DNA from: Candidatus Omnitrophota bacterium
GTDB taxonomy: Bacteria > Omnitrophota > Gorgyraeia > Gygaellales > Profunditerraquicolaceae
NCBI GenBank assembly: GCA_028716245.1
Contig: JAQUQW010000002.1
Location: 293,346 to 357,345, forward strand
DNA length: 64,000 nt
Direction: 5' to 3'
The notes beneath the pieces were generated by a model. It was given only the letters and a program-made list of their open reading frames with translations, did not search any database and was not told the origin of the DNA. Below, in pieces: positions 2,498 to 16,686 of this stretch. Position 1 is the first letter of the stretch; each line of letters begins with the position of its first letter. The translations under genes and the position numbers were made by a program.

Positions 2498-2580
2498 AAG
2501 ACTGTACGATTTCTGTATACCAAATGAGTTGCATTAACATAAGCTGTTGATTATAATTACCTTGTGAGCGTCGGAGTTTA
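2498..2580 (+). promoter_or_regulatory. promoter cassette copy 1: direct repeats CTGTACGATT/CTGTATACCA, -35 TTGCAT (2529-2534), 17-nt spacer, -10 TATAAT (2552-2557), short leader CCTTGTGAGCGTCGG
   Basis: About 85% identical to the copy at 3376..3460; near-consensus sigma70 elements with correct spacing directly upstream of the ATG at 2580. Confidence 0.6.
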
Positions 2581-3349
2581 TGAAGAAAATTAAAATAGCT
2601 GCATTAGCGATTTTTAGTATTGTATTAATTTTATCCGTAAATAAAGCCTATGCCGGTCTGGATAAAAAACGTAATGAGGCAGGTCTTGTGTATTGGCATG
2701 GTGACATAAACCAGCCCAAGATCGCTTTAACCTTTGACGATGGGCCAAATGAGCCCTATACATCAGAAATCTTAGACATATTGAAGAAGCATGGTATTAA
2801 ACAACATTTTTTGTATTAGGGAAGAATGTTGAGCGTTATCCGGATATTGCGAAAAAGATTGTTGCAGAAGGCCATGTAATTGGAAATCACACCTACGACC
2901 ATCCTTACTTGTTGATCCAATCTAAGGCGCATATCAGATATGAAATTGAGAAAGCAGAACAGGCTATTTTTAAGGCTACACATACCAAGCCGCATTTGTT
3001 TAGGCCGCCTTATGGAGTAACGGATAACTGGATATATCATACCGTTAAAGAGCATGGTTATGTTACAGTCGAATGGTCAGTGACTGGTAACAATGGAGGT
3101 AAAGAAATACGTACCGATGCTATTGAGAAAGATGTTTTGAGCAGAGTAACAAACGGAGCAATTATACTTCTTCACGATGGAGACAGGCTTATCAAAGGAG
3201 CTAATCGCAGGAATATTGTAAGGGCCCTGCCGGTTATTATCGAATCTTTACAGCAGAAAGGGTACCAGCTTGTTACGGTACCACAGCTATTAGGTATTAA
3301 AAATATCAATGAGGCTAAATCTCCTGTAATGGAAACACCTCACCAGTAA
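2580..3349 (+). pseudogene. polysaccharide deacetylase (NodB/CE4 family) carrying a -1 frameshift near 2799-2803
   Basis: ORF 2580..2819 gives the TFDDGP motif and ends HGIKQHFLY*. The next frame continues TTFFVLGKNVERYPD..HVIGNHTYDHP..RPPYG (ORF 2909..3349 and its upstream extension). A single-base deletion joins them into one CE4 protein. Confidence 0.75.
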
Positions 3350-4470: not shown

Positions 4471-4839
4471 TTAGTTCTGTTCTTGTCCCGGGATATATTT
4501 TTTAATTATTCTATCCATTTCGTCTAAATCTATAGGTTTAATAAGGTAATCGCTTGCCCCCAGCGCCCGCGCTTCGTTCTGGTTTGAGTTATCATCTCTT
4601 CCGCTGATCATTATGGCTTTTATGCCGATATTTATTTCTTTCATCTTCCTCAAGAGGTCAAGCCCGTTTATATCCGGCATTTTAATATCCAGAAAAACCC
4701 ATTCAGGTTTATGACGGTTAAATAACTCAAGCGCTTCTTGGCCGCAAGTTGCCTTTTCTACGTTTAGGCCAAGCCGTTTAAGAAAAATACTAAAGAAATT
4801 AACAACCTCAATTTCATTATCGACTACGAGGACATTCAT
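4471..4839 (-). CDS. response regulator, receiver domain only (CheY-like)
   Basis: MNVLVVDNE..DIKMPDINGLDL..: acidic pocket, phospho-acceptor Asp and conserved Lys; no output domain. Confidence 0.8.
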   Translation of the reverse strand: MNVLVVDNEIEVVNFFSIFLKRLGLNVEKATCGQEALELFNRHKPEWVFLDIKMPDINGLDLLRKMKEINIGIKAIMISGRDDNSNQNEARALGASDYLIKPIDLDEMDRIIKKYIPGQEQN

Positions 4840-4901
4840 ATCTACCTCCTGGTCTACGAAGACAACACCCGCGCAATTCCGCTAAGCGCGGGGTGTCTCA
4901 C
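4840..4901 (-). promoter_or_regulatory. palindromic leader element copy A, in the HK-RR intergenic region upstream of the RR start
   Basis: Minus strand reads ACACCCCGCGCttagcggaattGCGCGGGTGTtgtcttcgtagaccAGGAGGtagatATG; same architecture as the purU and clpC leaders. Confidence 0.6.
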
Positions 4902-7082
4902 CTATTGTTTTTTTGGTAATTCTATAATAAAAGAAGTCCCTTCCATATAGTTTGAAGTAAACCGGATTTTGCCTCTGTGGTTTTCTTCTATAATCCTCTT
5001 TACCACATATACTCCTATGCCTGAGCCGGATTTATAGGAAGTTTTGGTGGTAAAGAAAGGGGCAAATATCTTAGGTTTATCCTCTGCTTTTATGCCTATG
5101 CCGTTATCCGATATTTTTATTATTTGTTGGCCTTGCGTATGCGTTAAGCTTAATCCTATGGCCGGGACAAAGGATCCCGGCTCTTTTTTTGCGCCAATCT
5201 GCATTTTTCTTTCTTCGATGGCTTCATAGGCGTTGTCCAGCAGATTATAAATGACTTCGGTTAATTGCGACTTGATTCCGTATATTGCCTCTTCATTATC
5301 AATTTTTACAGTAAGGGGGAGGGAGGCGGTTTCGTGTTTAAACATTAATAGGTCAGAGGAAAGCTTTACGGCTTCTTTCAGGGAAAAGACGGTGAAGAGA
5401 TTTTCTTTATTTTCTACTTTGGCAAAGTCAAGGATCCCTTTGATAATAGCGTCAGTCCTTTTTACGTTATCCAGGATGGTAGCGGCTATCTCATTCAGGT
5501 ATTTAAATGTTTTATTTAGTTCCGGGTTGTGGTTAACCAGCTTATCGTTTTTTTCTATAAAGTTTCTTACCTCAATTTTTAATTCCCCGCCTGTCAAGGA
5601 AAACAGGTTAAGCCTGTTTTTGATCTGGTGGGCAATGCCGTCAGCCATGCCTCCGATTGAAGCAAGCTTTTCGGCGGCGAACATCCTTTGCTGCGAGTCT
5701 TTTGATTCTTCGAAGAATATGCAATTTTCAATTGCCAGCGCTACCTGCCGCGAAAGAATTTTAAAAACATTAATATCTTCATTAGAATAAGGATGGGTGT
5801 TTGTTTTCTCACCCAGAAATACAAAACCAAAAAGCTCTTCCCCGATTAACACGGGGATAACTATTTTGGTTTTAGAAAGTATATTTGAAGAATTTTTTAT
5901 TTGTTCGGGAGCATTTTCAAAGAAAAAGTTTCCGCGGTTTTCCTTTAGATAACGGATAAAAGGATCATCTATATCAAAACTTTTAACGCATTCTCCGATA
6001 TTAGATTCTCCGCGTATTGATTTTAGTTGATACAAATTGTTTTTCTTATCTTTAATAAAGATCGCGGAGAAATTAATCCGGATTGTATTTTTTAAGATAT
6101 AAACAATAAGTCTTGATAATTTTTTTAGGTCATGTTCGGTAACCATGCCAACCGCGGCCCGCAAAAGTATCCTTTGATAACGGCGTTGTTGAGCTAAAAT
6201 AGCCGATTCGGCTTTCATCTGCAGGAAACGGTAGACCAGCGGTCCTATTGTTGCGAAAATAACCGCAAGGGAAGTGGCGAGTAATCCCGAACCCGTGCGC
6301 TTAAGCACGATAAACGGTATGCCTAGAACAATAGTGTAGACCGCAAGAAATATGCCTGCGCGGGTAAAGACAATTCTTATGTCCATAAGGTGATAACGGA
6401 TAATTGCATAACTCATCAAAAAAGAAAAAATAAGTACTGGAATAAAGCCAAAGGGGTATATCTCTAATCCATAGCAAGGCAGCCAATCTGTTGCCCCCAG
6501 ATAAGCAACAAGTGTCGCAATGAGGACTATTTTATATTGCCTCTTTTTCAGTCCAGCCGCTTTTTTATAAAGATTAATATAGTTTATTAAAGTTGCAATA
6601 AGGGGAATAATCCAATAAATTATAAATATATTTCCACCAATACCATTTTTAAAATAGCGTCCCCAGAAATAATGGTGAACTCCCGATAAAATATAATTGT
6701 ATTTTAAATTAGTTAAATAAAATATCAAACTGATTATAGCGCCAAGGATTACATATTTTCTTTGTTTATTGAGTAATTCTTTGTCATGGCATAAACTAAG
6801 CCAATAATTAGCGATTGAAATAAAACACACGCCCAGGAATTCAAATTTATTATACAACTCTATTACTATCCAATCATATTTTGACATATACGTAAGGCCA
6901 TTGCCAAACAGCCAAAAATTTGCCAGAATTATCCATATTGAAAAAGATATATTTAAGCGTACCTTGTTTTTTAAGCCGACAAATAACCCCAAGAAAATGG
7001 ATATTACACCACTGAGAAAAACAGGTATCGCATAAGGATTCCAAAAGTAATTCTGCGGGTTAAACATCTCTTTTAGCATCAA
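4902..7082 (-). CDS. sensor histidine kinase: N-terminal multi-TM sensor, GAF domain, HisKA, HATPase_c
   Basis: About 8 N-terminal TM helices; H-box GIAHQIKNRL; HATPase motifs DNGIGI and GSGIGV. Confidence 0.8.
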   Translation of the reverse strand: MMLKEMFNPQNYFWNPYAIPVFLSGVISIFLGLFVGLKNKVRLNISFSIWIILANFWLFGNGLTYMSKYDWIVIELYNKFEFLGVCFISIANYWLSLCHDKELLNKQRKYVILGAIISLIFYLTNLKYNYILSGVHHYFWGRYFKNGIGGNIFIIYWIIPLIATLINYINLYKKAAGLKKRQYKIVLIATLVAYLGATDWLPCYGLEIYPFGFIPVLIFSFLMSYAIIRYHLMDIRIVFTRAGIFLAVYTIVLGIPFIVLKRTGSGLLATSLAVIFATIGPLVYRFLQMKAESAILAQQRRYQRILLRAAVGMVTEHDLKKLSRLIVYILKNTIRINFSAIFIKDKKNNLYQLKSIRGESNIGECVKSFDIDDPFIRYLKENRGNFFFENAPEQIKNSSNILSKTKIVIPVLIGEELFGFVFLGEKTNTHPYSNEDINVFKILSRQVALAIENCIFFEESKDSQQRMFAAEKLASIGGMADGIAHQIKNRLNLFSLTGGELKIEVRNFIEKNDKLVNHNPELNKTFKYLNEIAATILDNVKRTDAIIKGILDFAKVENKENLFTVFSLKEAVKLSSDLLMFKHETASLPLTVKIDNEEAIYGIKSQLTEVIYNLLDNAYEAIEERKMQIGAKKEPGSFVPAIGLSLTHTQGQQIIKISDNGIGIKAEDKPKIFAPFFTTKTSYKSGSGIGVYVVKRIIEENHRGKIRFTSNYMEGTSFIIELPKKQ

Positions 7083-8379
7083 GGGTTCTCACCGTTAATT
7101 TTTTGGTATGCATAGTCGAAAGATACATTCTAATTAGAGACAAAAACGATTCTTTATCTTTGAGCACCAATCCTGCATATAGCGCTACTTTTGTAACGGA
7201 TCTGCAATATAAATGCGAAGAATTATTACCTATTGCGCAGGGTGTGCGTATATTCCCGTCGTTACGCATATGCAGGCAATATGTTTTCCGGGTTTTGTTA
7301 AAAACATTCATTGGGCAATTTTCAGCCAGCTCTTCTCCGTATTTTGTTCGCAACAATTCTATCATAAGTTTGCTATTACAAATAAAGTTTCCATATTTTT
7401 TCTTTAAACCTAATAATAAAGATACTGTTTTTTCTCTTTGCTCATCGTTCAAAATAAGATAGGAAGATTTTCCTTTGATAGGGGTATACATTGTAAAGAC
7501 TACGCCGTCAATTTTTGTTTTGCTCCATTCTTCCAAAAATTCTGAAATACAACCGGTATTTATAGCATTCAAGCAATATATAATAGCTGTTGATATTCTT
7601 TTCTCTGTCGCAGAAAATGCATTTTTCTTAATTTTATCATATACTCCTGCGCCTCTTAGTTTATCATTTATTTCTTTAGTGCCATCCACAGATATGGCAA
7701 CTTGGACGTTATTGCCAAGAACTGGGATCGGAAACGTGCCGTTAGTTATAACTAAGTTGTTTTTTTTAAAGTTAACTCCCCGTTTTAATAATTCAATTAT
7801 TTCTTCTTTGGCAAAAGGTTCCCCTCCAAACCATGTTATGTTTGTAATGCCGGGGTATTTGTTAAGGACATTTTTAACCGAATCTAAGATGTTTGTGTTT
7901 ACCGTTGTCGGTAACTGTTCGTCATATGAATCCCAAAAGCAGTGTTTGCATCTTAAATTGCACGTATTTGTAATATCAACTGACAAAGCGCGGGGATGTA
8001 AGTCTTCTATTAGCTTTGAGGAAAGAGGTATGGATGAAGTGTCGAAAGGTTGGCAGATTGCGTTAACTTTAATTTCTAATAAGGCCTTCTGTAAGATTTC
8101 TGATGTTTTTTCATCTAACTTTGTAAAACAAGCACCATAAATGAATCTGTTTTCTTTACGCTTATCCCAAATAGTATTTATTTCTATATCTATTATATCG
8201 CCAAAAGGAAATTCTATTCTAATTCCCATCTTTGATAGTAGTAAAGGTTTTTCTGATAAGAAACTTATGCCTGTTTCGTTTAGGTTAATAGTTTCTCCAG
8301 AAACTTCCGAAGCAATTCTTACCGGTAATACGGAATTGTATCTTGTAGATTTTCTTTTTTCTATGGTAAGGTCATTCAC
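7060..8379 (-). CDS. PilZ-like domain fused to a radical SAM enzyme (possible SPASM/twitch-like C-terminal Cys cluster)
   Basis: N-terminus EKRKSTRYNSVLPVRI (RxxxR) and NLNETGISF (D/NxSxxG-like). Then CNLRCKHC (CX3CX2C) and FGGEPF. C-terminus has CPMN..C..C..C. Confidence 0.6.
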   Translation of the reverse strand: MNDLTIEKRKSTRYNSVLPVRIASEVSGETINLNETGISFLSEKPLLLSKMGIRIEFPFGDIIDIEINTIWDKRKENRFIYGACFTKLDEKTSEILQKALLEIKVNAICQPFDTSSIPLSSKLIEDLHPRALSVDITNTCNLRCKHCFWDSYDEQLPTTVNTNILDSVKNVLNKYPGITNITWFGGEPFAKEEIIELLKRGVNFKKNNLVITNGTFPIPVLGNNVQVAISVDGTKEINDKLRGAGVYDKIKKNAFSATEKRISTAIIYCLNAINTGCISEFLEEWSKTKIDGVVFTMYTPIKGKSSYLILNDEQREKTVSLLLGLKKKYGNFICNSKLMIELLRTKYGEELAENCPMNVFNKTRKTYCLHMRNDGNIRTPCAIGNNSSHLYCRSVTKVALYAGLVLKDKESFLSLIRMYLSTMHTKKLTVRTLDAKRDV

Positions 8380-8396
8380 TTTAAGCGCATTTCTTT

Positions 8397-9704
8397 TTAA
8401 AGTTTAAAAGTCAAGGTTAATATATAAACATTAATAAAGGATTTATACCTTCCGTTAATACTGGTGCCGCTGGATGAGCCTACGGCATTATTGATTTTTC
8501 TTGGATTGTAAAACATCGCCGCATACGCAAAATCAAGGCCTAAATTTTTATTAATCTGATACCCTGTTCCCAAAGTCAGGGAATTTGAGGTAGAATCCGG
8601 TAAAGCGGTATCAAAAGTTCCCTCGGGTATGGGTGTTTTATGGAAAAAATATCCTGCTCTTAATTTCCAGCTTTCATTAACCTTATATTCTGTCCCGAAA
8701 GCGTACGATAAAACAGCCCGCCAGTCCCTTTGGACAGGGTTGCCGGCATTCAAAACAGCCAGCCGCGCAACATTTGTTTCCGACGGGTAATCGATCTGCT
8801 CTTTATCTACTGAAGACCAATCCATCCATTCCATGTCTGCCTCAAACCGCCATTTGTCGTCCGGCTTAAAACAATAACCGAATAATATGCTCTGCGGTAA
8901 TCTTGACTTTGTGGACATGTCGGTTTCGTAAGAGCTCCCCCCGAAGATGCCTTGATAGTTAGAGCCGGAACTATTCAGATCATTAAGATAGACCTTGCCT
9001 TTATACGTTAAATCTACAGCGCTGCGGTACATCAGCCCAAAAGAATGGTTTTTATTAAGCTTATATAGCGCAGATAACCGATAACCCCAGGCATTATTAT
9101 CTCTTCCTTTTAGCTGGAAATCTCCGTCGGCTCCGCCCGCCTGGAGAAGCTTCTTTTTTTTATTTGCCAGGGCTTTTGTATAATCCAGGCCTACGCCTAC
9201 AGAAATATTGTCATTTATCTCATATGCCGCAGTAAGCATAACGTCCTGCGTAATTACATCGCTTTTCGTAGCCACGTATTTTGAGAAACTATCTTCCGCC
9301 CAAAAGGTTCCCAGACCCCAGTAAGAAGTTGCGCCCAAGCCAAAGGAAAATTTTTCCAGGCCAAAGTCGCTTACGATAAAACCACTAGGGATCGTAAATA
9401 TCTGCCTGCGCCTGTCTGTTTGGTTTCCGGCGGTATCTTCATAAGTACAAAATGGCTGGACTACAGAAGCGCCCACAGAAACATATGTTTTTCCTTTTAA
9501 CTGGGTAAGTCCGGCGGGATTATAGTAAATAGCCGAGGGATTATCTGCCTGGGCCACAAAAGCAGAGCCTTTTCCTAAGGCTTCAGCGTCCGGGACTTCA
9601 AGACGATAGGCTCCTGAACCGGCAGAGTAGGCATTCTTTAGAGGGAAGGATAATGTTAACCCAAGCGAAAAAATAATTACTATCTTTTTCGTTTTTCCGT
9701 TCAT
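8397..9704 (-). CDS. outer-membrane transport protein, FadL/TodX family (hydrophobic-compound porin)
   Basis: Signal peptide, N-terminal hatch segment with YNPAGL motif, amphipathic beta-strands, about 435 aa. Confidence 0.75.
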   Translation of the reverse strand: MNGKTKKIVIIFSLGLTLSFPLKNAYSAGSGAYRLEVPDAEALGKGSAFVAQADNPSAIYYNPAGLTQLKGKTYVSVGASVVQPFCTYEDTAGNQTDRRRQIFTIPSGFIVSDFGLEKFSFGLGATSYWGLGTFWAEDSFSKYVATKSDVITQDVMLTAAYEINDNISVGVGLDYTKALANKKKKLLQAGGADGDFQLKGRDNNAWGYRLSALYKLNKNHSFGLMYRSAVDLTYKGKVYLNDLNSSGSNYQGIFGGSSYETDMSTKSRLPQSILFGYCFKPDDKWRFEADMEWMDWSSVDKEQIDYPSETNVARLAVLNAGNPVQRDWRAVLSYAFGTEYKVNESWKLRAGYFFHKTPIPEGTFDTALPDSTSNSLTLGTGYQINKNLGLDFAYAAMFYNPRKINNAVGSSSGTSINGRYKSFINVYILTLTFKL

Positions 9705-9858
9705 CCTTTTAGTTTTGAGTATGGAACATTATGCCATTATTAAAGTTGCGGGATTTATTTTTAGCAAAACTTACAAAATCATTATAATGGATTTCTCGGG
9801 TTTGTCCACGGTTTTTTATTTAACTATTAGAAAACAGGAGACTTAGGAAAGTTAGGAA

Positions 9859-9887
9859 TTGACTTTTGTATGCCAAGGTGGTATTAT
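9859..9887 (+). promoter_or_regulatory. sigma70-type promoter (-35 TTGACT, 17 nt, -10 TATTAT)
   Basis: Read directly; drives the RR gene starting at 9965. Confidence 0.55.
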
Positions 9888-9964
9888 TTATTCAAATTAA
9901 GGCCGGGCGTAATTTTAAAGAGACGGCCAAAGATAGCGGCAATGTTAGCGTGGAGGAGAGGGGG

Positions 9965-10357
9965 ATGGGAAAGAATAAAATTATGATTATTGATGATGAG
10001 AGCGGCACCGTTGATTTATTGGCGCACCGCCTGGAAAGTGAGGGCTATCAGGTGGTTGCGTTATCGGATGCCAAAGGGGTCATCTCTAAACTCCATAGTT
10101 TTATCCCGGATCTGATAATATTAGATCTGCTGATGCCGGAATACGGGGGGCTGGATGTTTGCGAGATGCTGAATAAAGAACCCCTGGGGTTAAACACGCC
10201 GATTATCGTAGTAAGCGGTTTGAATAAAGATGCCGATAAAAAGAAGGCTTATAGCCTGGGGATAGAGAAATATTTTGTAAAACCCGTGGATATGGATGTT
10301 TTGTTAGCGGCAATTAAGAAGCTTATAAAGGATAAGAGCAATGCCAGCGAAAATTAA
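9965..10357 (+). CDS. response regulator, receiver domain only
   Basis: True start ATG 9965 with RBS GGAGGAGAGGGGG. IMIIDDE..DLIILDLLMPEYGG..; no output domain. Confidence 0.8.
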   Translation: MGKNKIMIIDDESGTVDLLAHRLESEGYQVVALSDAKGVISKLHSFIPDLIILDLLMPEYGGLDVCEMLNKEPLGLNTPIIVVSGLNKDADKKKAYSLGIEKYFVKPVDMDVLLAAIKKLIKDKSNASEN

Positions 10358-11480
10358 AATATTCTCGGCAATAATTTTTACCACGCTTATAATCGCCGGA
10401 TTTTTTCTTGCGCGAGGATGCATCTCTAATTTATCAGGATCCTTGGCTAAAGATAAAGTTGCCCCGAGAGAATTAAAAGAAGCATTATATTGGCAGGAGG
10501 CGGGCGAAGGCAAGGTGCAGTGTTTTTTATGCCCCAGGCGATGTTTGATACCTTTGGGCCAGCGGGGTTTTTGCCGCGCAAGAAAGAATATCAAAGGCAA
10601 GCTCTATGCCTTAACTTACGGCTAGCCCGTGGCCATACATATCGACCCGGTAGAGAAGAAGCCGCTTTTTCATGTTTACCCGGGGACAAAATCTTTTTCC
10701 ATTGCTACCGCCGGATGCAATTTAAGATGCAAGTTTTGCCAGAACTGGGAAATTTCCCAACTGGATCCTGAAACAGTAAAAGTGGCTTATATTTCGCCGC
10801 AGGATATCGTAAGGGAGGCCAAGCAGAGCGGCGCAAAGACGATAGCTTTTACTTACACTGAGCCGGCGATCTTCTATGAATATATGCTTGATATCGCCAA
10901 ATTGGCCAAAAAGGAGGGCATTGCCTGCGTTATGCATTCGGCAGGTTTTGTTAATGAGGAGCCCCTGCGCCAGCTGTCTAAATACTTAACCGCCGCAAAT
11001 ATCGACCTGAAAGGTTTTAGCGATAAATATTATTCTTCTTTTTGCGAAGGCAACTTAACCAGCGTCCTTAATTCTCTTAAGGTATTAAAAGAGGAAAAAG
11101 TCTGGGTGGAGGTAACCAATCTCATTATCCCTTCCGCCAATGATTCCGACGAAGATATCGGCAATCTTTGTTTGTGGGTAAAAGATAACCTTGGCCCGGA
11201 TACCCCGGTGCATTTTTCCAGGTTCTTCCCGATGTATAAGCTGGCGGATTTATCTCCTACGCCGCTTAAAACATTAATCCGCGCAAAAGAGATCGCCTAT
11301 AAAACAGGGCTGCGCTATGTGTACATCGGCAATGTCCCGGAAAATTTAGGAGAGGATACAATTTGTCCCGTATGCGCCAAATTTCTGATTAAGCGCGCAG
11401 GCTATACCATATTGGAGAATAATGTTATTAAAGGTAAGTGCAAATTCTGCGGCGCTAAGATCTCCGGCGTATGGGATTAG
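10341..11480 (+). pseudogene. AmmeMemoRadiSam-system radical SAM enzyme (PFL-activase-like), interrupted by an in-frame TAG at 10623-10625
   Basis: ORFs 10341..10625 and 10629..11480 share a frame. Read-through gives ..CFLCPRRC..GFCRARKN..LYALTYG*PVAIHIDPVEKKPLFHVYPG..CNLRCKFCQNWE, the hallmark of this family. Confidence 0.75.
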
Positions 11481-13588
11481 TTGCGCAGGTTTTTCAGGGC
11501 AAAGATCGCGTTGAGCAAGATTAAAGTTAAAAGGCTATACGGTGTCCCCAGAAATGGTATAAGCAGTATCCCGCTTACCATTGTCCCCAGGAATGCCCCG
11601 ATTAAATCCGCTGAATAGATAGTCATAGCTAAATTTTTGTTGTCGAATTTATTTTTAAGCAGGTTTTGCGCCAGGAGCGGATAGGAGCTGCCGGTAAGGA
11701 ACCCGCAGATCAAGGAATAGAAATAGAAGATAAACTCGGCGTAACCAACCTTTGTGATTATTTTCAGGTTCCAAAATAAAATAAAGATCGAGATCATCCA
11801 GAAGAGGTAAAGCCCGGAGAGCAGGTTGGCCCGATAGGTTTTGATGGTATTTAAGAGAAATGTCCCGATGCTAAGCCCGGCCATAAACAAGGCGATTAAT
11901 AAGCCTAACTTCCAAAACAAAGCCCCGCAATAAAGTTGGAATAACACAAAAATTATCGAACTAAAGCTGATCGAAGTAAAGCCGATCATCCCGGTATTTA
12001 AGAGGCAGGAAATTTTTTTAAAAAGATAGCCGAAAATTATTATCAGTGCTGCCAAAAGCAAAAGAGCCGCGGCTATGCTTGAGCGCATTTTATTGAAATC
12101 TATTTTGAGGTTAGGATAAAACTTAATTTGTTCCAGGATAAGATAATTAAGGAAACCTGACGGGTTAAGGTCGGTATTTGCCGGGACATTTCTATCCAGC
12201 ATACTTTCCGTATAACTGCGCATCGCAGGGTCAAGATAGTCCTTAAAATGATAGATTGTGAAAAACTTAGTCCGGGGGTTTACCTTGGTAAAATTGTTCA
12301 GCAGATCGTCAGCATTAATTTTTAGCTTATCGGAGGCGATTACAATCATGGAATCAGAAGGGATAATGAAGGTATTCGTAAATACCCTGTCTATGGCATT
12401 TATTATGCTGGAGTCAAACCTGGCAAATTGCGGGCTTAATATTTCTCTTTTAGAAGGGATGGTAAATGCAAATATGCCTTTTGGTTTCAAGCGCCCGGGA
12501 ATAAGTTTAAAAAATTCTTCGGTAAAATAGCGGTTTAAGGCCAGGTTAACCGGCGCGGGCATATTCATTAAAATAGCGTCATATTGCCTGTTTGTGTTCT
12601 TAAGGTATAGGCGGGGATCATCAGTAATAAAATTAACTTTACTTTTTAGCCCGGCAGGCAATTTATTTTTGGCAAGTTTTGAGATCAGGGGGTTTATCTG
12701 CAGGCAATCCAGCGAGTTTAATTTATACTTAGCTATTTCTTCAACCTGTCCGGAGATGGCCGCGCCGACAAAGAGGACATCTTTATTAACGAGGGGGCTG
12801 GTTGCGGACAAACTCATATGGATAAATTCTTCATTGGCGGATCTATCTTCGCTTGTAGCTAAAGAAGATCCTCCGGAAAACAAGGTGGTTGCTCCTGCTT
12901 TGCAAGTGGCAATAATCGGGCCATAGCTAGAGCCAAGATTTACCAGGATATCAGCGTTAGCGAATTCTTTCTTAAGAATAGAGTTAAAACTTACTGCAGA
13001 GATTATAGTTATGATAATGATGAGGCAAGCCGGAAGGATTTTTTTATAGTGATTTTTAATGGCCGGCAACAAAATCAACGGTGATAACGCGAAAATCAGC
13101 GGATTTGTATAATCGATAAAGCAAAAAGTAAAAGCCATGCCCCCCAAGAAAAAACCTATTGCCTCAAAGGCAAAGAACTTAGCGTAAATATCTTTTTGCG
13201 GCTGATTTTCTCTAATGTATTCTTGCACAAAATGCCTGAAGGCAAGGCCGATGGTAAAAGCAGTTGGCCCGATCAAAATAATACTTAAAAATAATACCAG
13301 GCCCAGGCCCGCGGCTTCGTAATATTTTAATCCTGCCAGTGATTTTGCCAGATGGATCAGGCATACGGAGAAAGAAAAAGATAGAGAGGCTAAAATACAG
13401 AGTAGTGTTGTGCGCAGTCTTTTAGAAGTTTTGAGGATACTGCCTAAGGAGCAAAAAATAATCCAGAAACCCACAGCGACCACAAAGGCCAGCTCATTTT
13501 TGGCGATGGAGAAGCTGAATTCACGCAAGATGACCAGCTGAAATATCGCGGCAATTATCCCTAATGCTATAAAGATAATCATGGACAA
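11477..13588 (-). CDS. spermidine-synthase-like (polyamine aminopropyltransferase fold) fused to a large polytopic membrane domain
   Basis: 703 aa with more than 10 TM helices on both sides of a Rossmann-type SpeE-like segment (VLFVGAAISG..DAILMNMP..). Confidence 0.55.
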   Translation of the reverse strand: MSMIIFIALGIIAAIFQLVILREFSFSIAKNELAFVVAVGFWIIFCSLGSILKTSKRLRTTLLCILASLSFSFSVCLIHLAKSLAGLKYYEAAGLGLVLFLSIILIGPTAFTIGLAFRHFVQEYIRENQPQKDIYAKFFAFEAIGFFLGGMAFTFCFIDYTNPLIFALSPLILLPAIKNHYKKILPACLIIIITIISAVSFNSILKKEFANADILVNLGSSYGPIIATCKAGATTLFSGGSSLATSEDRSANEEFIHMSLSATSPLVNKDVLFVGAAISGQVEEIAKYKLNSLDCLQINPLISKLAKNKLPAGLKSKVNFITDDPRLYLKNTNRQYDAILMNMPAPVNLALNRYFTEEFFKLIPGRLKPKGIFAFTIPSKREILSPQFARFDSSIINAIDRVFTNTFIIPSDSMIVIASDKLKINADDLLNNFTKVNPRTKFFTIYHFKDYLDPAMRSYTESMLDRNVPANTDLNPSGFLNYLILEQIKFYPNLKIDFNKMRSSIAAALLLLAALIIIFGYLFKKISCLLNTGMIGFTSISFSSIIFVLFQLYCGALFWKLGLLIALFMAGLSIGTFLLNTIKTYRANLLSGLYLFWMISIFILFWNLKIITKVGYAEFIFYFYSLICGFLTGSSYPLLAQNLLKNKFDNKNLAMTIYSADLIGAFLGTMVSGILLIPFLGTPYSLLTLILLNAIFALKNLRN

Positions 13589-14267
13589 TCTTTCCTTTTG
13601 TTATTATATTAAACCCAAGATGAACGAAAGTCTATATTATTTATTTTTAAGCGGCTTGATCCTCGGTTCGGGCCCTTGTTTAGGTTTCTGCGCGCCGATC
13701 TTAATCGGTTTTACCGCGGCTTATAAACCGTCGCTAAAGGGGGCGCTGGTTTCCTACCTGTCTTTTTCTTCGGCTAAACTGGTTAGCTATATGGTTATCG
13801 GAGCTTTATGCGGTGTATTCTCCGGCATATTAAAAAGCGGTTTTTTCGCGGGCTACCTTAATATCGTAAACATAACTTTAGGTTTTTTTGTTTTACTCAT
13901 CGGGGTTTTGACAATTATTTCCAAAGAACCGTTAAGCAGTAAGTATTGCGCGTTTCTCTCTAAAGGGAACTTAAGGAACGCGGGCATTTTGGGTTTTTTA
14001 GCGGGTTTTTCTCCGTGCCTTCCGCTTCTGGGTATCTTAAATTATATCATTATTATTGCTCACTCGCCGCTTGAAGGATTGTTTTACGCTTTTATCTTTG
14101 GGCTGGGGACCAGCATTTCTCCGGCGATCTTATTGGTCGGCTTATCGGGCAAGCTTTTCGGTAATTTTTCAAGCAATAATAAGATCAGGGCATTAATCCG
14201 GATTGTCTCTAGTTTTATCCTGATATATTTGGGGGCAGGAATCATTTTTCAGAGGTTCATGCGGTAG
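13581..14267 (+). CDS. membrane protein, DsbD_2/CcdA-like (paired Cys in TM segments)
   Basis: GSGPCLGFCAP and GFSPCLP motifs in TM helices. The start may be the Met at about 13620 because it overlaps the divergent gene. Confidence 0.4.
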   Translation: MDNLSFCYYIKPKMNESLYYLFLSGLILGSGPCLGFCAPILIGFTAAYKPSLKGALVSYLSFSSAKLVSYMVIGALCGVFSGILKSGFFAGYLNIVNITLGFFVLLIGVLTIISKEPLSSKYCAFLSKGNLRNAGILGFLAGFSPCLPLLGILNYIIIIAHSPLEGLFYAFIFGLGTSISPAILLVGLSGKLFGNFSSNNKIRALIRIVSSFILIYLGAGIIFQRFMR

Positions 14268-14279
14268 CAAATCTTAGGG

Positions 14280-14359: not shown

Positions 14360-14749
14360 ATGGCAAGGAAAAAAATAATAAAATTAAGGTGCCGAGGTTT
14401 TTCATTAATTGAGTTGATGTTCGGTGTTTCGATTTTATTGGTTACGATTATCGCCGCCCTGTCCTCGACTATTGGCTCTATGTTTCTGAATGAATCCAGC
14501 AGGAACCTGGTCACCGCAGCCAATGACGCGCAGTATGTGCTGGAGCAGATAAAAGCGCAAAGTTTCAGCAATATCTCAACCTATATTTCAGGTTTTTCTC
14601 CTACGAAATTCAATAATTTATTGGGAGAGACAGTTACTTTCCCCGGTCCTGTATATACTGCAAATCTGGATACAATAACCGTAGACATTACCTGGAATGA
14701 AAGAAATGCTGCCAGAACCCTCTCGATTACTACGCGTTTCGCGCAATAA
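14360..14749 (+). CDS. type IV pilin / pseudopilin (prepilin N-methylation motif)
   Basis: RCRGFSLIELMFGVSILLV: G|FSLIE cleavage and methylation motif plus hydrophobic helix. Confidence 0.75.
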   Translation: MARKKIIKLRCRGFSLIELMFGVSILLVTIIAALSSTIGSMFLNESSRNLVTAANDAQYVLEQIKAQSFSNISTYISGFSPTKFNNLLGETVTFPGPVYTANLDTITVDITWNERNAARTLSITTRFAQ

Positions 14750-16170: not shown

Positions 16171-16686
16171 ATGAAAAAGGTAAAACAAAAATATAAAAAT
16201 AATCGGATCAGCGGCGTAAAGGCCCCTGATTATTTACAAATAATAGAACGCCGTCATTTTATCCGCCATCCATTGTCTTTGCCTCTTACTTACAAGGTTA
16301 TCAGCCCGGGATTAGGCAAGAGCCGGGAGGATATGCAGGCTCAAACAAGCAATATAAGCGTAGGAGGATTGTTGTTCCCGGGAAAACGTTCTGTCCAGCC
16401 CAATTCTATGATTGCGATAAAAATGCCTTTTGAGGATAAGATGTTTAATATTAAGGCAAAAGTTGTCCGCTGCGTTAATAATCCGGAGACCAAACTTTAT
16501 GATATCGCGGTAAGTTTTTTCAGGTTCCATGAAGCTTTTAAGGCAAAAATGATTGAGCAGATTTATCTTATTTCGGAATACCGGGATTTGCTTATTTTGC
16601 AGTCGGGCAAAGAGATTTCTCTTGCCGAAGCATCGCGTAAGTGGGTGAAACGATATTCAGAACGATTTAAAAGGCTTTACTGGTAG
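16171..16686 (+). CDS. PilZ domain protein (c-di-GMP binding)
   Basis: RRHFIRHPLSLPL (RxxxR) and NISVGGLLF (DxSxGG). Confidence 0.7.
   Translation: MKKVKQKYKNNRISGVKAPDYLQIIERRHFIRHPLSLPLTYKVISPGLGKSREDMQAQTSNISVGGLLFPGKRSVQPNSMIAIKMPFEDKMFNIKAKVVRCVNNPETKLYDIAVSFFRFHEAFKAKMIEQIYLISEYRDLLILQSGKEISLAEASRKWVKRYSERFKRLYW

Follow-up and report, generated by a model that had tools for sequence, protein, structure and literature searches.

A minus-strand operon in a 64,000-nucleotide stretch of a Candidatus Omnitrophota contig (the whole stretch is called the window here) encodes, in gene order, a FadL-family outer-membrane protein, a radical S-adenosylmethionine (radical SAM) protein with an N-terminal PilZ domain, a histidine kinase with a seven-transmembrane (7TM) sensor region and a GAF domain, and a receiver-only response regulator termed RR1. 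This operon is the functional unit, and its conserved core consists of a putatively twitch-like radical SAM enzyme and the HisKA_7TM-GAF kinase. The arrangement suggests that the radical SAM protein may be an enzymatic effector gated by signaling, with one input through its PilZ domain and another through the kinase and receiver. We give this explanation about an even chance of being correct.

All six genes named in a first-pass annotation of this DNA are present, as judged by a listing of open reading frames (ORFs) and by Pfam and NCBIfam scans (Table 1). Spacing within the operon is 17 nt between the FadL and PilZ-radical SAM genes and 62 nt between the kinase and RR1 genes, and the kinase gene, which starts at TTG 7082 or ATG 7079, overlaps the stop codon of the radical SAM gene by 20-23 nt. 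A second receiver-only regulator, RR2, is divergent from the operon, so that two such regulators flank the FadL-like gene as annotated. The annotation was also correct that two different radical SAM genes are present, one of PilZ-radical SAM and one of AmmeMemoRadiSam type, although the second proves to be interrupted, and that the cluster has no DNA-binding output domain: no cluster protein matches a helix-turn-helix or other DNA-binding family in the Pfam and NCBIfam scans. The sensor kinase had been described as a hybrid, and this does not hold, because it has only HisKA_7TM, GAF and HATPase_c domains and neither a receiver nor a histidine phosphotransfer (HPt) domain. By tblastn, this kinase and the two receivers are the only ones detectable in the whole window.

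The radical SAM core carries C140-x3-C144-x2-C147 and GGEP (residues 185-188), both invariant in 30 aligned sequences. Three more cysteines (C355, C381 and C392) are invariant in the family alignment and H370 is near-invariant; the three cysteines suggest a putative auxiliary Fe-S site. The core is preceded by a PilZ β-barrel (approximately residues 7-100) and a linker helix. An AlphaFold2 model of the protein has a mean predicted local distance difference test score (pLDDT) of 86.6 and a predicted template-modeling score of 0.83, with the β-barrel at residues 19-85 modeled at pLDDT 81-90. The RxxxR motif of PilZ domains is present (R9-K-S-T-R13) and is kept in 11 of 11 aligned PilZ-radical SAM sequences. 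The nearest solved folds are those of SkfB, SuiB, BlsE, anSME, MoaA and viperin (TM-scores of 0.43-0.56, identities of 14-23%). Pfam finds no SPASM domain (PF13186) in the protein, and NCBIfam models of radical SAM subfamilies (NirJ1, AhbC, ScmE and similar) score at most 55.6 bits, against cut-offs of 170-855.

Homolog searches and alignment define a family with a conserved core of ~330 amino acids that is 46-65% identical among its members. Three architectures are built on this one core: PilZ-radical SAM proteins of ~440-590 amino acids, bare radical SAM proteins of ~325-348 amino acids, and proteins of 447-469 amino acids in which a receiver (REC) domain is fused to the enzyme (P0042, P0046, P0047 and P0054). 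REC and PilZ take the same N-terminal position, and the fused receivers have every residue of the DD/D/T/K set. Mis-called starts were considered for the bare forms and rejected, because upstream in-frame extension is impossible. The REC fusions appear to link receiver signaling to the radical SAM enzyme, and they are the strongest argument for regarding the enzyme as an effector.

The family is rare. When 1.84 billion representative proteins were searched exhaustively with the family profile, only seven clusters (at 50% identity) scored above 460 bits, and the next match scored 329 bits. An N-terminal extension is present in six of the seven cluster representatives, and it contains PilZ or REC in five of these, recognized by Pfam directly in four and through alignment with the window PilZ domain in the fifth (P0002). 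The extension of P0035 has no Pfam match.

Family members with at least 42% identity occur in 14 independent gene contexts. Scans of genome and metagenome contigs with two patterns derived from the family alignment, one of which (CNL[RN]C[KA]HC) is too generic, added only four close loci among the matches listed (L011, L012, L091 and L092); the neighborhood statistics therefore rest on the 14 lineages. A HisKA_7TM-GAF kinase gene lies directly downstream of the radical SAM gene, on the same strand, in eight of these lineages (the window with its relative L175, L001-3, L004-5, L006-7, L008-9, L091, L171 and L172). In three others (L010, L092 and L174) the adjoining gene encodes a multi-pass membrane protein with the signaling domain of a methyl-accepting chemotaxis protein (MCP), and in the remaining three (L012, L173 and L178) no transducer gene is a neighbor. 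Gaps between radical SAM and kinase genes range across lineages from an 8-nt overlap to ~130 nt, and the two genes overlap in four lineages.

The relative L175 shares gene order and orientation with the window, with identities of 76% for the radical SAM protein, 73% for the kinase, 69% for FadL and 81% for RR2. Over all linked pairs, kinases are only 22-39% identical, versus 46-65% for the radical SAM core. Pairwise identities of the two proteins co-vary (Mantel r = 0.69, p = 0.0002; r = 0.55, p = 0.018 without the close relative). This pattern is expected from joint inheritance, and shared phylogeny alone would give the same. Base composition sets three genes of the operon apart within the window: G+C content is 0.340 for the PilZ-radical SAM gene (the lowest among the 48 long ORFs), 0.366 for the kinase gene and 0.385 for RR1, versus a mean of 0.438 ± 0.035 for the 48 long ORFs, whereas FadL and RR2 are average (0.43). 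The three-gene core may therefore have a separate origin.

The kinase (726 amino acids) comprises a HisKA_7TM region (residues 21-235), a GAF domain (approximately 317-453), an H-box with the sequence GIAHQIKN (His485) and HATPase_c (604-725). H485 is conserved across the kinases linked to radical SAM genes, and the 7TM region is the best-conserved part of these proteins (column conservation of 0.55-0.65, versus 0.40-0.45 for GAF). Homologs of the sensor part form ~100 clusters at 90% identity, mostly from Omnitrophota. Judging by equal contig sizes (4543, 5589, 6831 and 4729), four of them probably lie on the same contigs as radical SAM family members; two of these (6831 and 4729) appear to be additional cases of pairs that share a contig. 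The 7TM-GAF sensor module is also found paired with HD-GYP (P0484) and PP2C phosphatase (P0485) outputs.

Receiver-only genes lie 3' of the kinase gene in the window, L171 and L004/5; the radical SAM protein of L004/5 carries a fused receiver as well. The RR1 gene has the ribosome-binding site AGGAGG 7 nt upstream, and the 62-nt spacer that separates it from the kinase gene (4840-4901) holds a GC-rich inverted repeat of ~10 bp (CACCCCGCGC...GCGCGGGTG) without a T tract, which could form an RNA hairpin that affects RR1 expression. The key residues of RR1 are D7, N8, D51, S79 and K101 (compare D12/D13, D57, T87 and K109 of CheY). RR2, whose ATG start is preceded by GGAGGAG, has canonical receiver residues in the alignment (DD...D...S...K, all present). 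It has the same position and orientation in L175, and it probably serves the operon's kinase as a second receiver. The module takes its richest form in L171 (3800-11645), where the radical SAM-kinase pair is accompanied by a second HisKA_7TM kinase gene, three receiver-only genes and a GAF-HD-GYP gene, and this last gene, of c-di-GMP (cyclic di-GMP) phosphodiesterase type, links the module again to c-di-GMP.

We infer a flow of information from kinase to receiver to radical SAM enzyme, together with c-di-GMP binding and catalysis. The kinase would use its conserved 7TM region to sense a membrane-associated cue and would phosphorylate one or more receiver-only regulators (RR1, RR2 or both). A phosphorylated receiver would then dock on the radical SAM enzyme and alter its activity, while the N-terminal PilZ domain would provide another input, of c-di-GMP type. 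Such a pathway would end in a radical reaction on a conserved substrate rather than in transcription. In sister lineages, the receiver is fused to the enzyme itself, which would make the REC-radical SAM protein a response regulator with a radical SAM output domain. Precedent for a receiver-only regulator that switches an enzyme by direct contact is provided by EpsW (PMC12802240).

Several observations weigh against this explanation. The transducer in three lineages is of MCP type rather than a kinase, which a phosphotransfer model leaves unexplained, and three lineages have no transducer beside the radical SAM gene. The radical SAM-kinase operons of L001-3, L006-7 and L008-9 lack a receiver gene; thus, transfer from kinase to receiver to radical SAM enzyme is not always locally encoded. 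Among the ~100 kinase sensor homologs, there is no fusion of the kinase to a radical SAM or PilZ domain. Moreover, ~29 sensor homologs on contigs of at least 20 kb have no counterpart among the radical SAM matches. By this comparison of contig sizes only, most such kinases probably work without a linked radical SAM protein, so that dependence seems asymmetric: the radical SAM protein usually comes with a transducer, and not the reverse. The receiver and PilZ domains of the window also depart from consensus. RR1 has Asn at the position of CheY D13, the second Asp of the acidic pocket, which may weaken its phosphorylation. The second c-di-GMP motif of the window PilZ domain reads NLNETG instead of [D/N]xSxxG, with Asn replacing Ser. 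In 11 PilZ-radical SAM relatives this position is Ser in five, Asn in four and Gly in two, and the Gly of the motif is invariant; c-di-GMP binding by the window protein is thus uncertain. Finally, because the structural neighbors are generic SPASM/twitch and nucleotide-using radical SAM enzymes, no substrate can be named.

The MCP cases and the constant gene order would be accommodated if the radical SAM protein acted upstream of the transducer, either as a co-sensor dependent on its Fe-S cluster or SAM or as the synthase of a ligand, with PilZ and REC feeding into signal production. What 11 of the 14 contexts have in common is a membrane transducer of multi-pass type, whether kinase or MCP, and not a phosphotransfer partner, and some operons have no receiver at all. 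The radical SAM gene precedes the kinase gene in all eight kinase-linked lineages, as do many accessory sensor genes. Its product is far more conserved than the kinases, and the three invariant auxiliary cysteines and the MoaA and viperin fold neighbors permit a small-molecule or nucleotide substrate. However, GAF, the obvious cytoplasmic site for a ligand, shows the lowest conservation within the kinases, and the membrane regions of the MCPs have no detectable homology to the 7TM region. A phospho-accepting receiver fused to an enzyme is, in addition, a classic signature of output and not of input. An upstream role is a possible though doubtful main alternative to the effector explanation.

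Alternatively, the enzyme might be a maturase of SPASM/twitch type that introduces a thioether, an epimerization or a formylglycine-like change into the adjacent transducer or a small peptide, the kinase being its target or the regulator of a locus resembling those for ribosomally synthesized and post-translationally modified peptides (RiPPs). The best sequence and fold matches include enzymes that modify peptides or proteins (SkfB, anSME, CteB, YydG/EpeE and SuiB), and the translational coupling of the enzyme and kinase genes suggests that their products form a complex. Yet the gaps in the window operon leave no room for a precursor gene, and no small ORF is shared among the contexts, where one of 68 amino acids in L010 and one of 54 amino acids in L173 are the sole candidates. 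Besides the missing PF13186 match, the Pfam and NCBIfam scans gave no sign of a nearby RiPP recognition element, protease or exporter. A conserved enzyme beside fast-evolving kinases also argues against the kinase as substrate. We therefore regard a maturase as unlikely.

It is very unlikely that the adjacency is meaningless and that the protein is an ordinary metabolic enzyme that lies near signaling genes by chance. Three lineages without a transducer neighbor, and the many kinase homologs that seem to lack a radical SAM partner, would fit such a view. Nevertheless, adjacency to a rare kinase architecture persists although the kinases have diverged to 22-39% identity, the two genes overlap in four lineages, and PilZ and REC were fused independently to one enzyme core; the fusions alone make chance unlikely.

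Table 1. Features of the signaling locus and adjoining gene (window coordinates)
Feature	Position	Strand	Basis and remarks
RR1, receiver-only response regulator	4471..4839	-	Response_reg 91 bits; last operon gene
Sensor histidine kinase	4902..7082	-	HisKA_7TM (PF16927) 54.2 bits (cut-off 28.6), GAF, H-box, HATPase_c 77.1 bits
PilZ-radical SAM protein, 439 amino acids	7060..8379	-	Radical_SAM (PF04055) 45.8 bits (cut-off 29.5); PilZ (PF07238) 26.3 bits (cut-off 22.5)
FadL/Toluene_X outer-membrane protein	8397..9704	-	Toluene_X (PF03349) 216.6 bits (cut-off 29.7); first operon gene
Divergent promoter-like sites in 260-bp intergenic region	9781..9887	both	Consensus matches only
RR2, receiver-only response regulator	9965..10357	+	Response_reg 85.9 bits
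AmmeMemoRadiSam-system radical SAM gene, interrupted	10341..11480	+	TIGR04337 335.5 bits (cut-off 220) on the 283-amino-acid 3' ORF

The second radical SAM gene of the region belongs to the AmmeMemoRadiSam system. The ORF at 10629..11480 represents only its 3' part, with the TIGR04337 match beginning at profile position 53. The same frame extends upstream to ATG 10341 through an in-frame TAG at 10623-10625 (codon 95), and the gene is thus interrupted. Among 14 orthologs, this position is Gln in 10, Arg in 3 and Lys in 1. We rejected reassignment of TAG, or its use for pyrrolysine, as an explanation, since 11 of the 48 long ORFs of the window terminate at TAG and the orthologs place one of these three amino acids there. 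The codon reflects either a recent nonsense change of CAG to TAG or a consensus error in the metagenome-assembled genome (MAG). The ORFs scanned in positions 1-20 kb of the window include neither an AMMECR1 nor a Memo gene.

An ortholog with 86% identity (P0116) lies in the order PBP-family gene, radical SAM gene, spermidine-synthase-like gene (on the opposite strand) and DsbD_2 gene, a block colinear with positions 10356-14269 of the window at 77-86% amino-acid identity. None of RR2, FadL, PilZ-radical SAM, kinase or RR1 is present beside P0116, and the synteny of the AmmeMemoRadiSam backbone with L176 and L177 holds without the signaling genes. The block at 4471-10357 is an insertion or deletion difference relative to the genome of P0116, and the AmmeMemoRadiSam gene is a neighboring backbone gene that is not part of the signaling module. 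The first-pass annotation had grouped five genes, this one included, and had itself named lack of co-conservation in relatives as grounds for abandoning the idea. For the AmmeMemoRadiSam gene this is what the context of its ortholog P0116 reveals. Within the proposed set, the radical SAM-kinase pair is recurrent (8 of 14 lineages), and FadL and RR2 extend only to L175. The accompanying suggestion that the radical SAM proteins are regulated targets stands for the PilZ-radical SAM protein, which is tied to kinase and receivers by adjacency and by the REC fusions, and not for the second enzyme. Although the ATG of the AmmeMemoRadiSam gene and the stop codon of RR2, which has the same orientation and follows a promoter-like site, overlap by 17 nt, a five-gene system in which RR2 regulates this enzyme is hardly credible, given the P0116 context, the near-universal and highly conserved distribution of the family in Omnitrophota (7989 hits at E ≤ 1e-60), the nonsense codon at a conserved Gln/Arg/Lys position, and the lack of a matching start in the 78 nt after RR2 in L175.

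The FadL-family protein has a signal peptide and is not an equivalog of Escherichia coli FadL (94.5 bits, against a cut-off of 585). FadL and RR2 are common only to the window and L175 and are absent from all more distant contexts; no homolog of the FadL, AmmeMemoRadiSam or spermidine-synthase-like genes was found in any other context of the radical SAM family. FadL is thus a lineage-specific addition to the core module. Facing its operon is the minus-strand site TGGACA-16-TATAAT (9808..9781; 11 of 12 consensus positions), and facing RR2 is the plus-strand site TTGACT-17-TATTAT (9859..9887; 10 of 12, with TG before the -10 element). The latter had been annotated as a clean promoter for RR2. 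The consensus match is real, but this AT-rich stretch contains many like it (30, versus 19.6 ± 4.4 in shuffled sequences).

Other features of the window include a stand-alone PilZ-domain protein (16171-16686; 35.3 bits) and an N-methyl (type IV pilin-like) protein (14360-14749), which suggest c-di-GMP signaling and pilus functions in the neighborhood. A polysaccharide deacetylase gene at approximately 2560-3349 is split by a frameshift near position 2800, with the signal peptide (...HGIK) in one frame and FFVLGKN... in another. Together with the AmmeMemoRadiSam gene, it is the second disrupted gene within 10 kb.

Elsewhere in the family, ~3.8 kb without a called gene lies directly upstream of the bare radical SAM gene in the metagenomic contigs L006 (4160-8000) and L007 (3432-7316). 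Long proteins of the wider radical SAM family are tandem radical SAM/SPASM proteins and one fusion to an ABC1/UbiB-type kinase (P0343). A clade from anammox-type Planctomycetota (31-36% identity) was set outside the family, and it is unlinked to two-component genes. In the distant Planctomycetota clade, a conserved soluble protein of 118-139 amino acids is encoded upstream of the radical SAM gene in L013, L014, L016, L094 and L097, and, in the same loci except L016, a gene for a secreted protein of 188-194 amino acids overlaps the radical SAM start. These upstream proteins are unrelated to proteins of the window, and two representatives from L014 (122 and 188 amino acids) have no Pfam match.

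The known end points of two-component and c-di-GMP pathways are transcription factors, cyclases, phosphodiesterases, methylesterases, glycosyltransferases or motors. We know of no radical SAM enzyme among described response-regulator output domains. Our literature search, which combined PilZ with radical SAM, receiver or output domain with radical SAM, and HisKA_7TM, yielded no description of a PilZ-radical SAM protein, a REC-radical SAM protein or a module of radical SAM enzyme and 7TM kinase, and, as far as this search went, a radical SAM enzyme has not been described as the end point of such a pathway. Where HisKA_7TM was mentioned, it was merely listed as a sensor domain with no known ligand (PMC5847659). 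A conserved core, swappable PilZ and REC domains, an almost obligatory transducer neighbor and translational coupling together make a testable case of signaling-controlled radical chemistry. Tentatively, the family may represent a new kind of signaling component, namely the first radical SAM output of two-component or c-di-GMP signaling or, more boldly, a radical SAM signal synthase whose product is read by the 7TM kinases and multi-pass MCPs encoded beside it. With one enzyme, one kinase and one or two receivers, the module is small, which makes reconstitution in vitro conceivable, and the substrate, once known, would reveal what uncultivated bacteria of the Omnitrophota and other groups change upon a membrane cue.

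The REC-radical SAM relatives resemble PleD (REC-GGDEF), CheB (REC-methylesterase) and RpfG (REC-HD-GYP) in having an N-terminal receiver on an enzyme and a gene beside that of a histidine kinase. They differ in that the output is a radical SAM enzyme; in the window, moreover, the receiver is separate and PilZ takes the fused position. Like CheY, DivK, MrrA and EpsW, RR1 and RR2 consist of a receiver only and must act through partners, with the radical SAM enzyme the presumed partner here. However, neither RR1 nor RR2 belongs to these families; RR2 falls below the cut-offs of the EpsW (55 bits versus 200) and DVU0259/DivK (63.4 versus 160) models. The kinase has the multi-pass N-terminal sensor, GAF domain and kinase core of PrsK (of the XrtA/PEP-CTERM system) and other HisKA_7TM kinases, yet its score with the PrsK model (TIGR02916), 100.7 bits, falls below the cut-off of 300, and neither a PrsR-type sigma-54 regulator nor an exosortase is encoded nearby. 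The AmmeMemoRadiSam gene is recognizable as a member of its system by its score and by its 86%-identical Omnitrophota orthologs, and it departs from that system in its TAG codon and in the lack of AMMECR1 and Memo partners in the region scanned.

As in the PilZ effectors BcsA (cellulose synthase), Alg44 and YcgR, a PilZ barrel with an RxxxR motif is joined to an enzyme, which suggests that c-di-GMP may exert allosteric control. The partner domain here is radical SAM, unlike in those proteins, and the window protein has a degenerate version of the second binding motif. With SkfB, anSME, SuiB, MoaA and BlsE, the enzyme shares the partial triosephosphate isomerase (TIM)-barrel core of radical SAM proteins, CxxxCxxC and a C-terminal Cys-bearing extension, but it is only 14-23% identical to them, lacks a SPASM match in Pfam and has only three invariant extra cysteines. 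The parts are thus ordinary members of known superfamilies (radical SAM, PilZ, REC, HisKA_7TM kinase and FadL), and the novelty lies in their combination.

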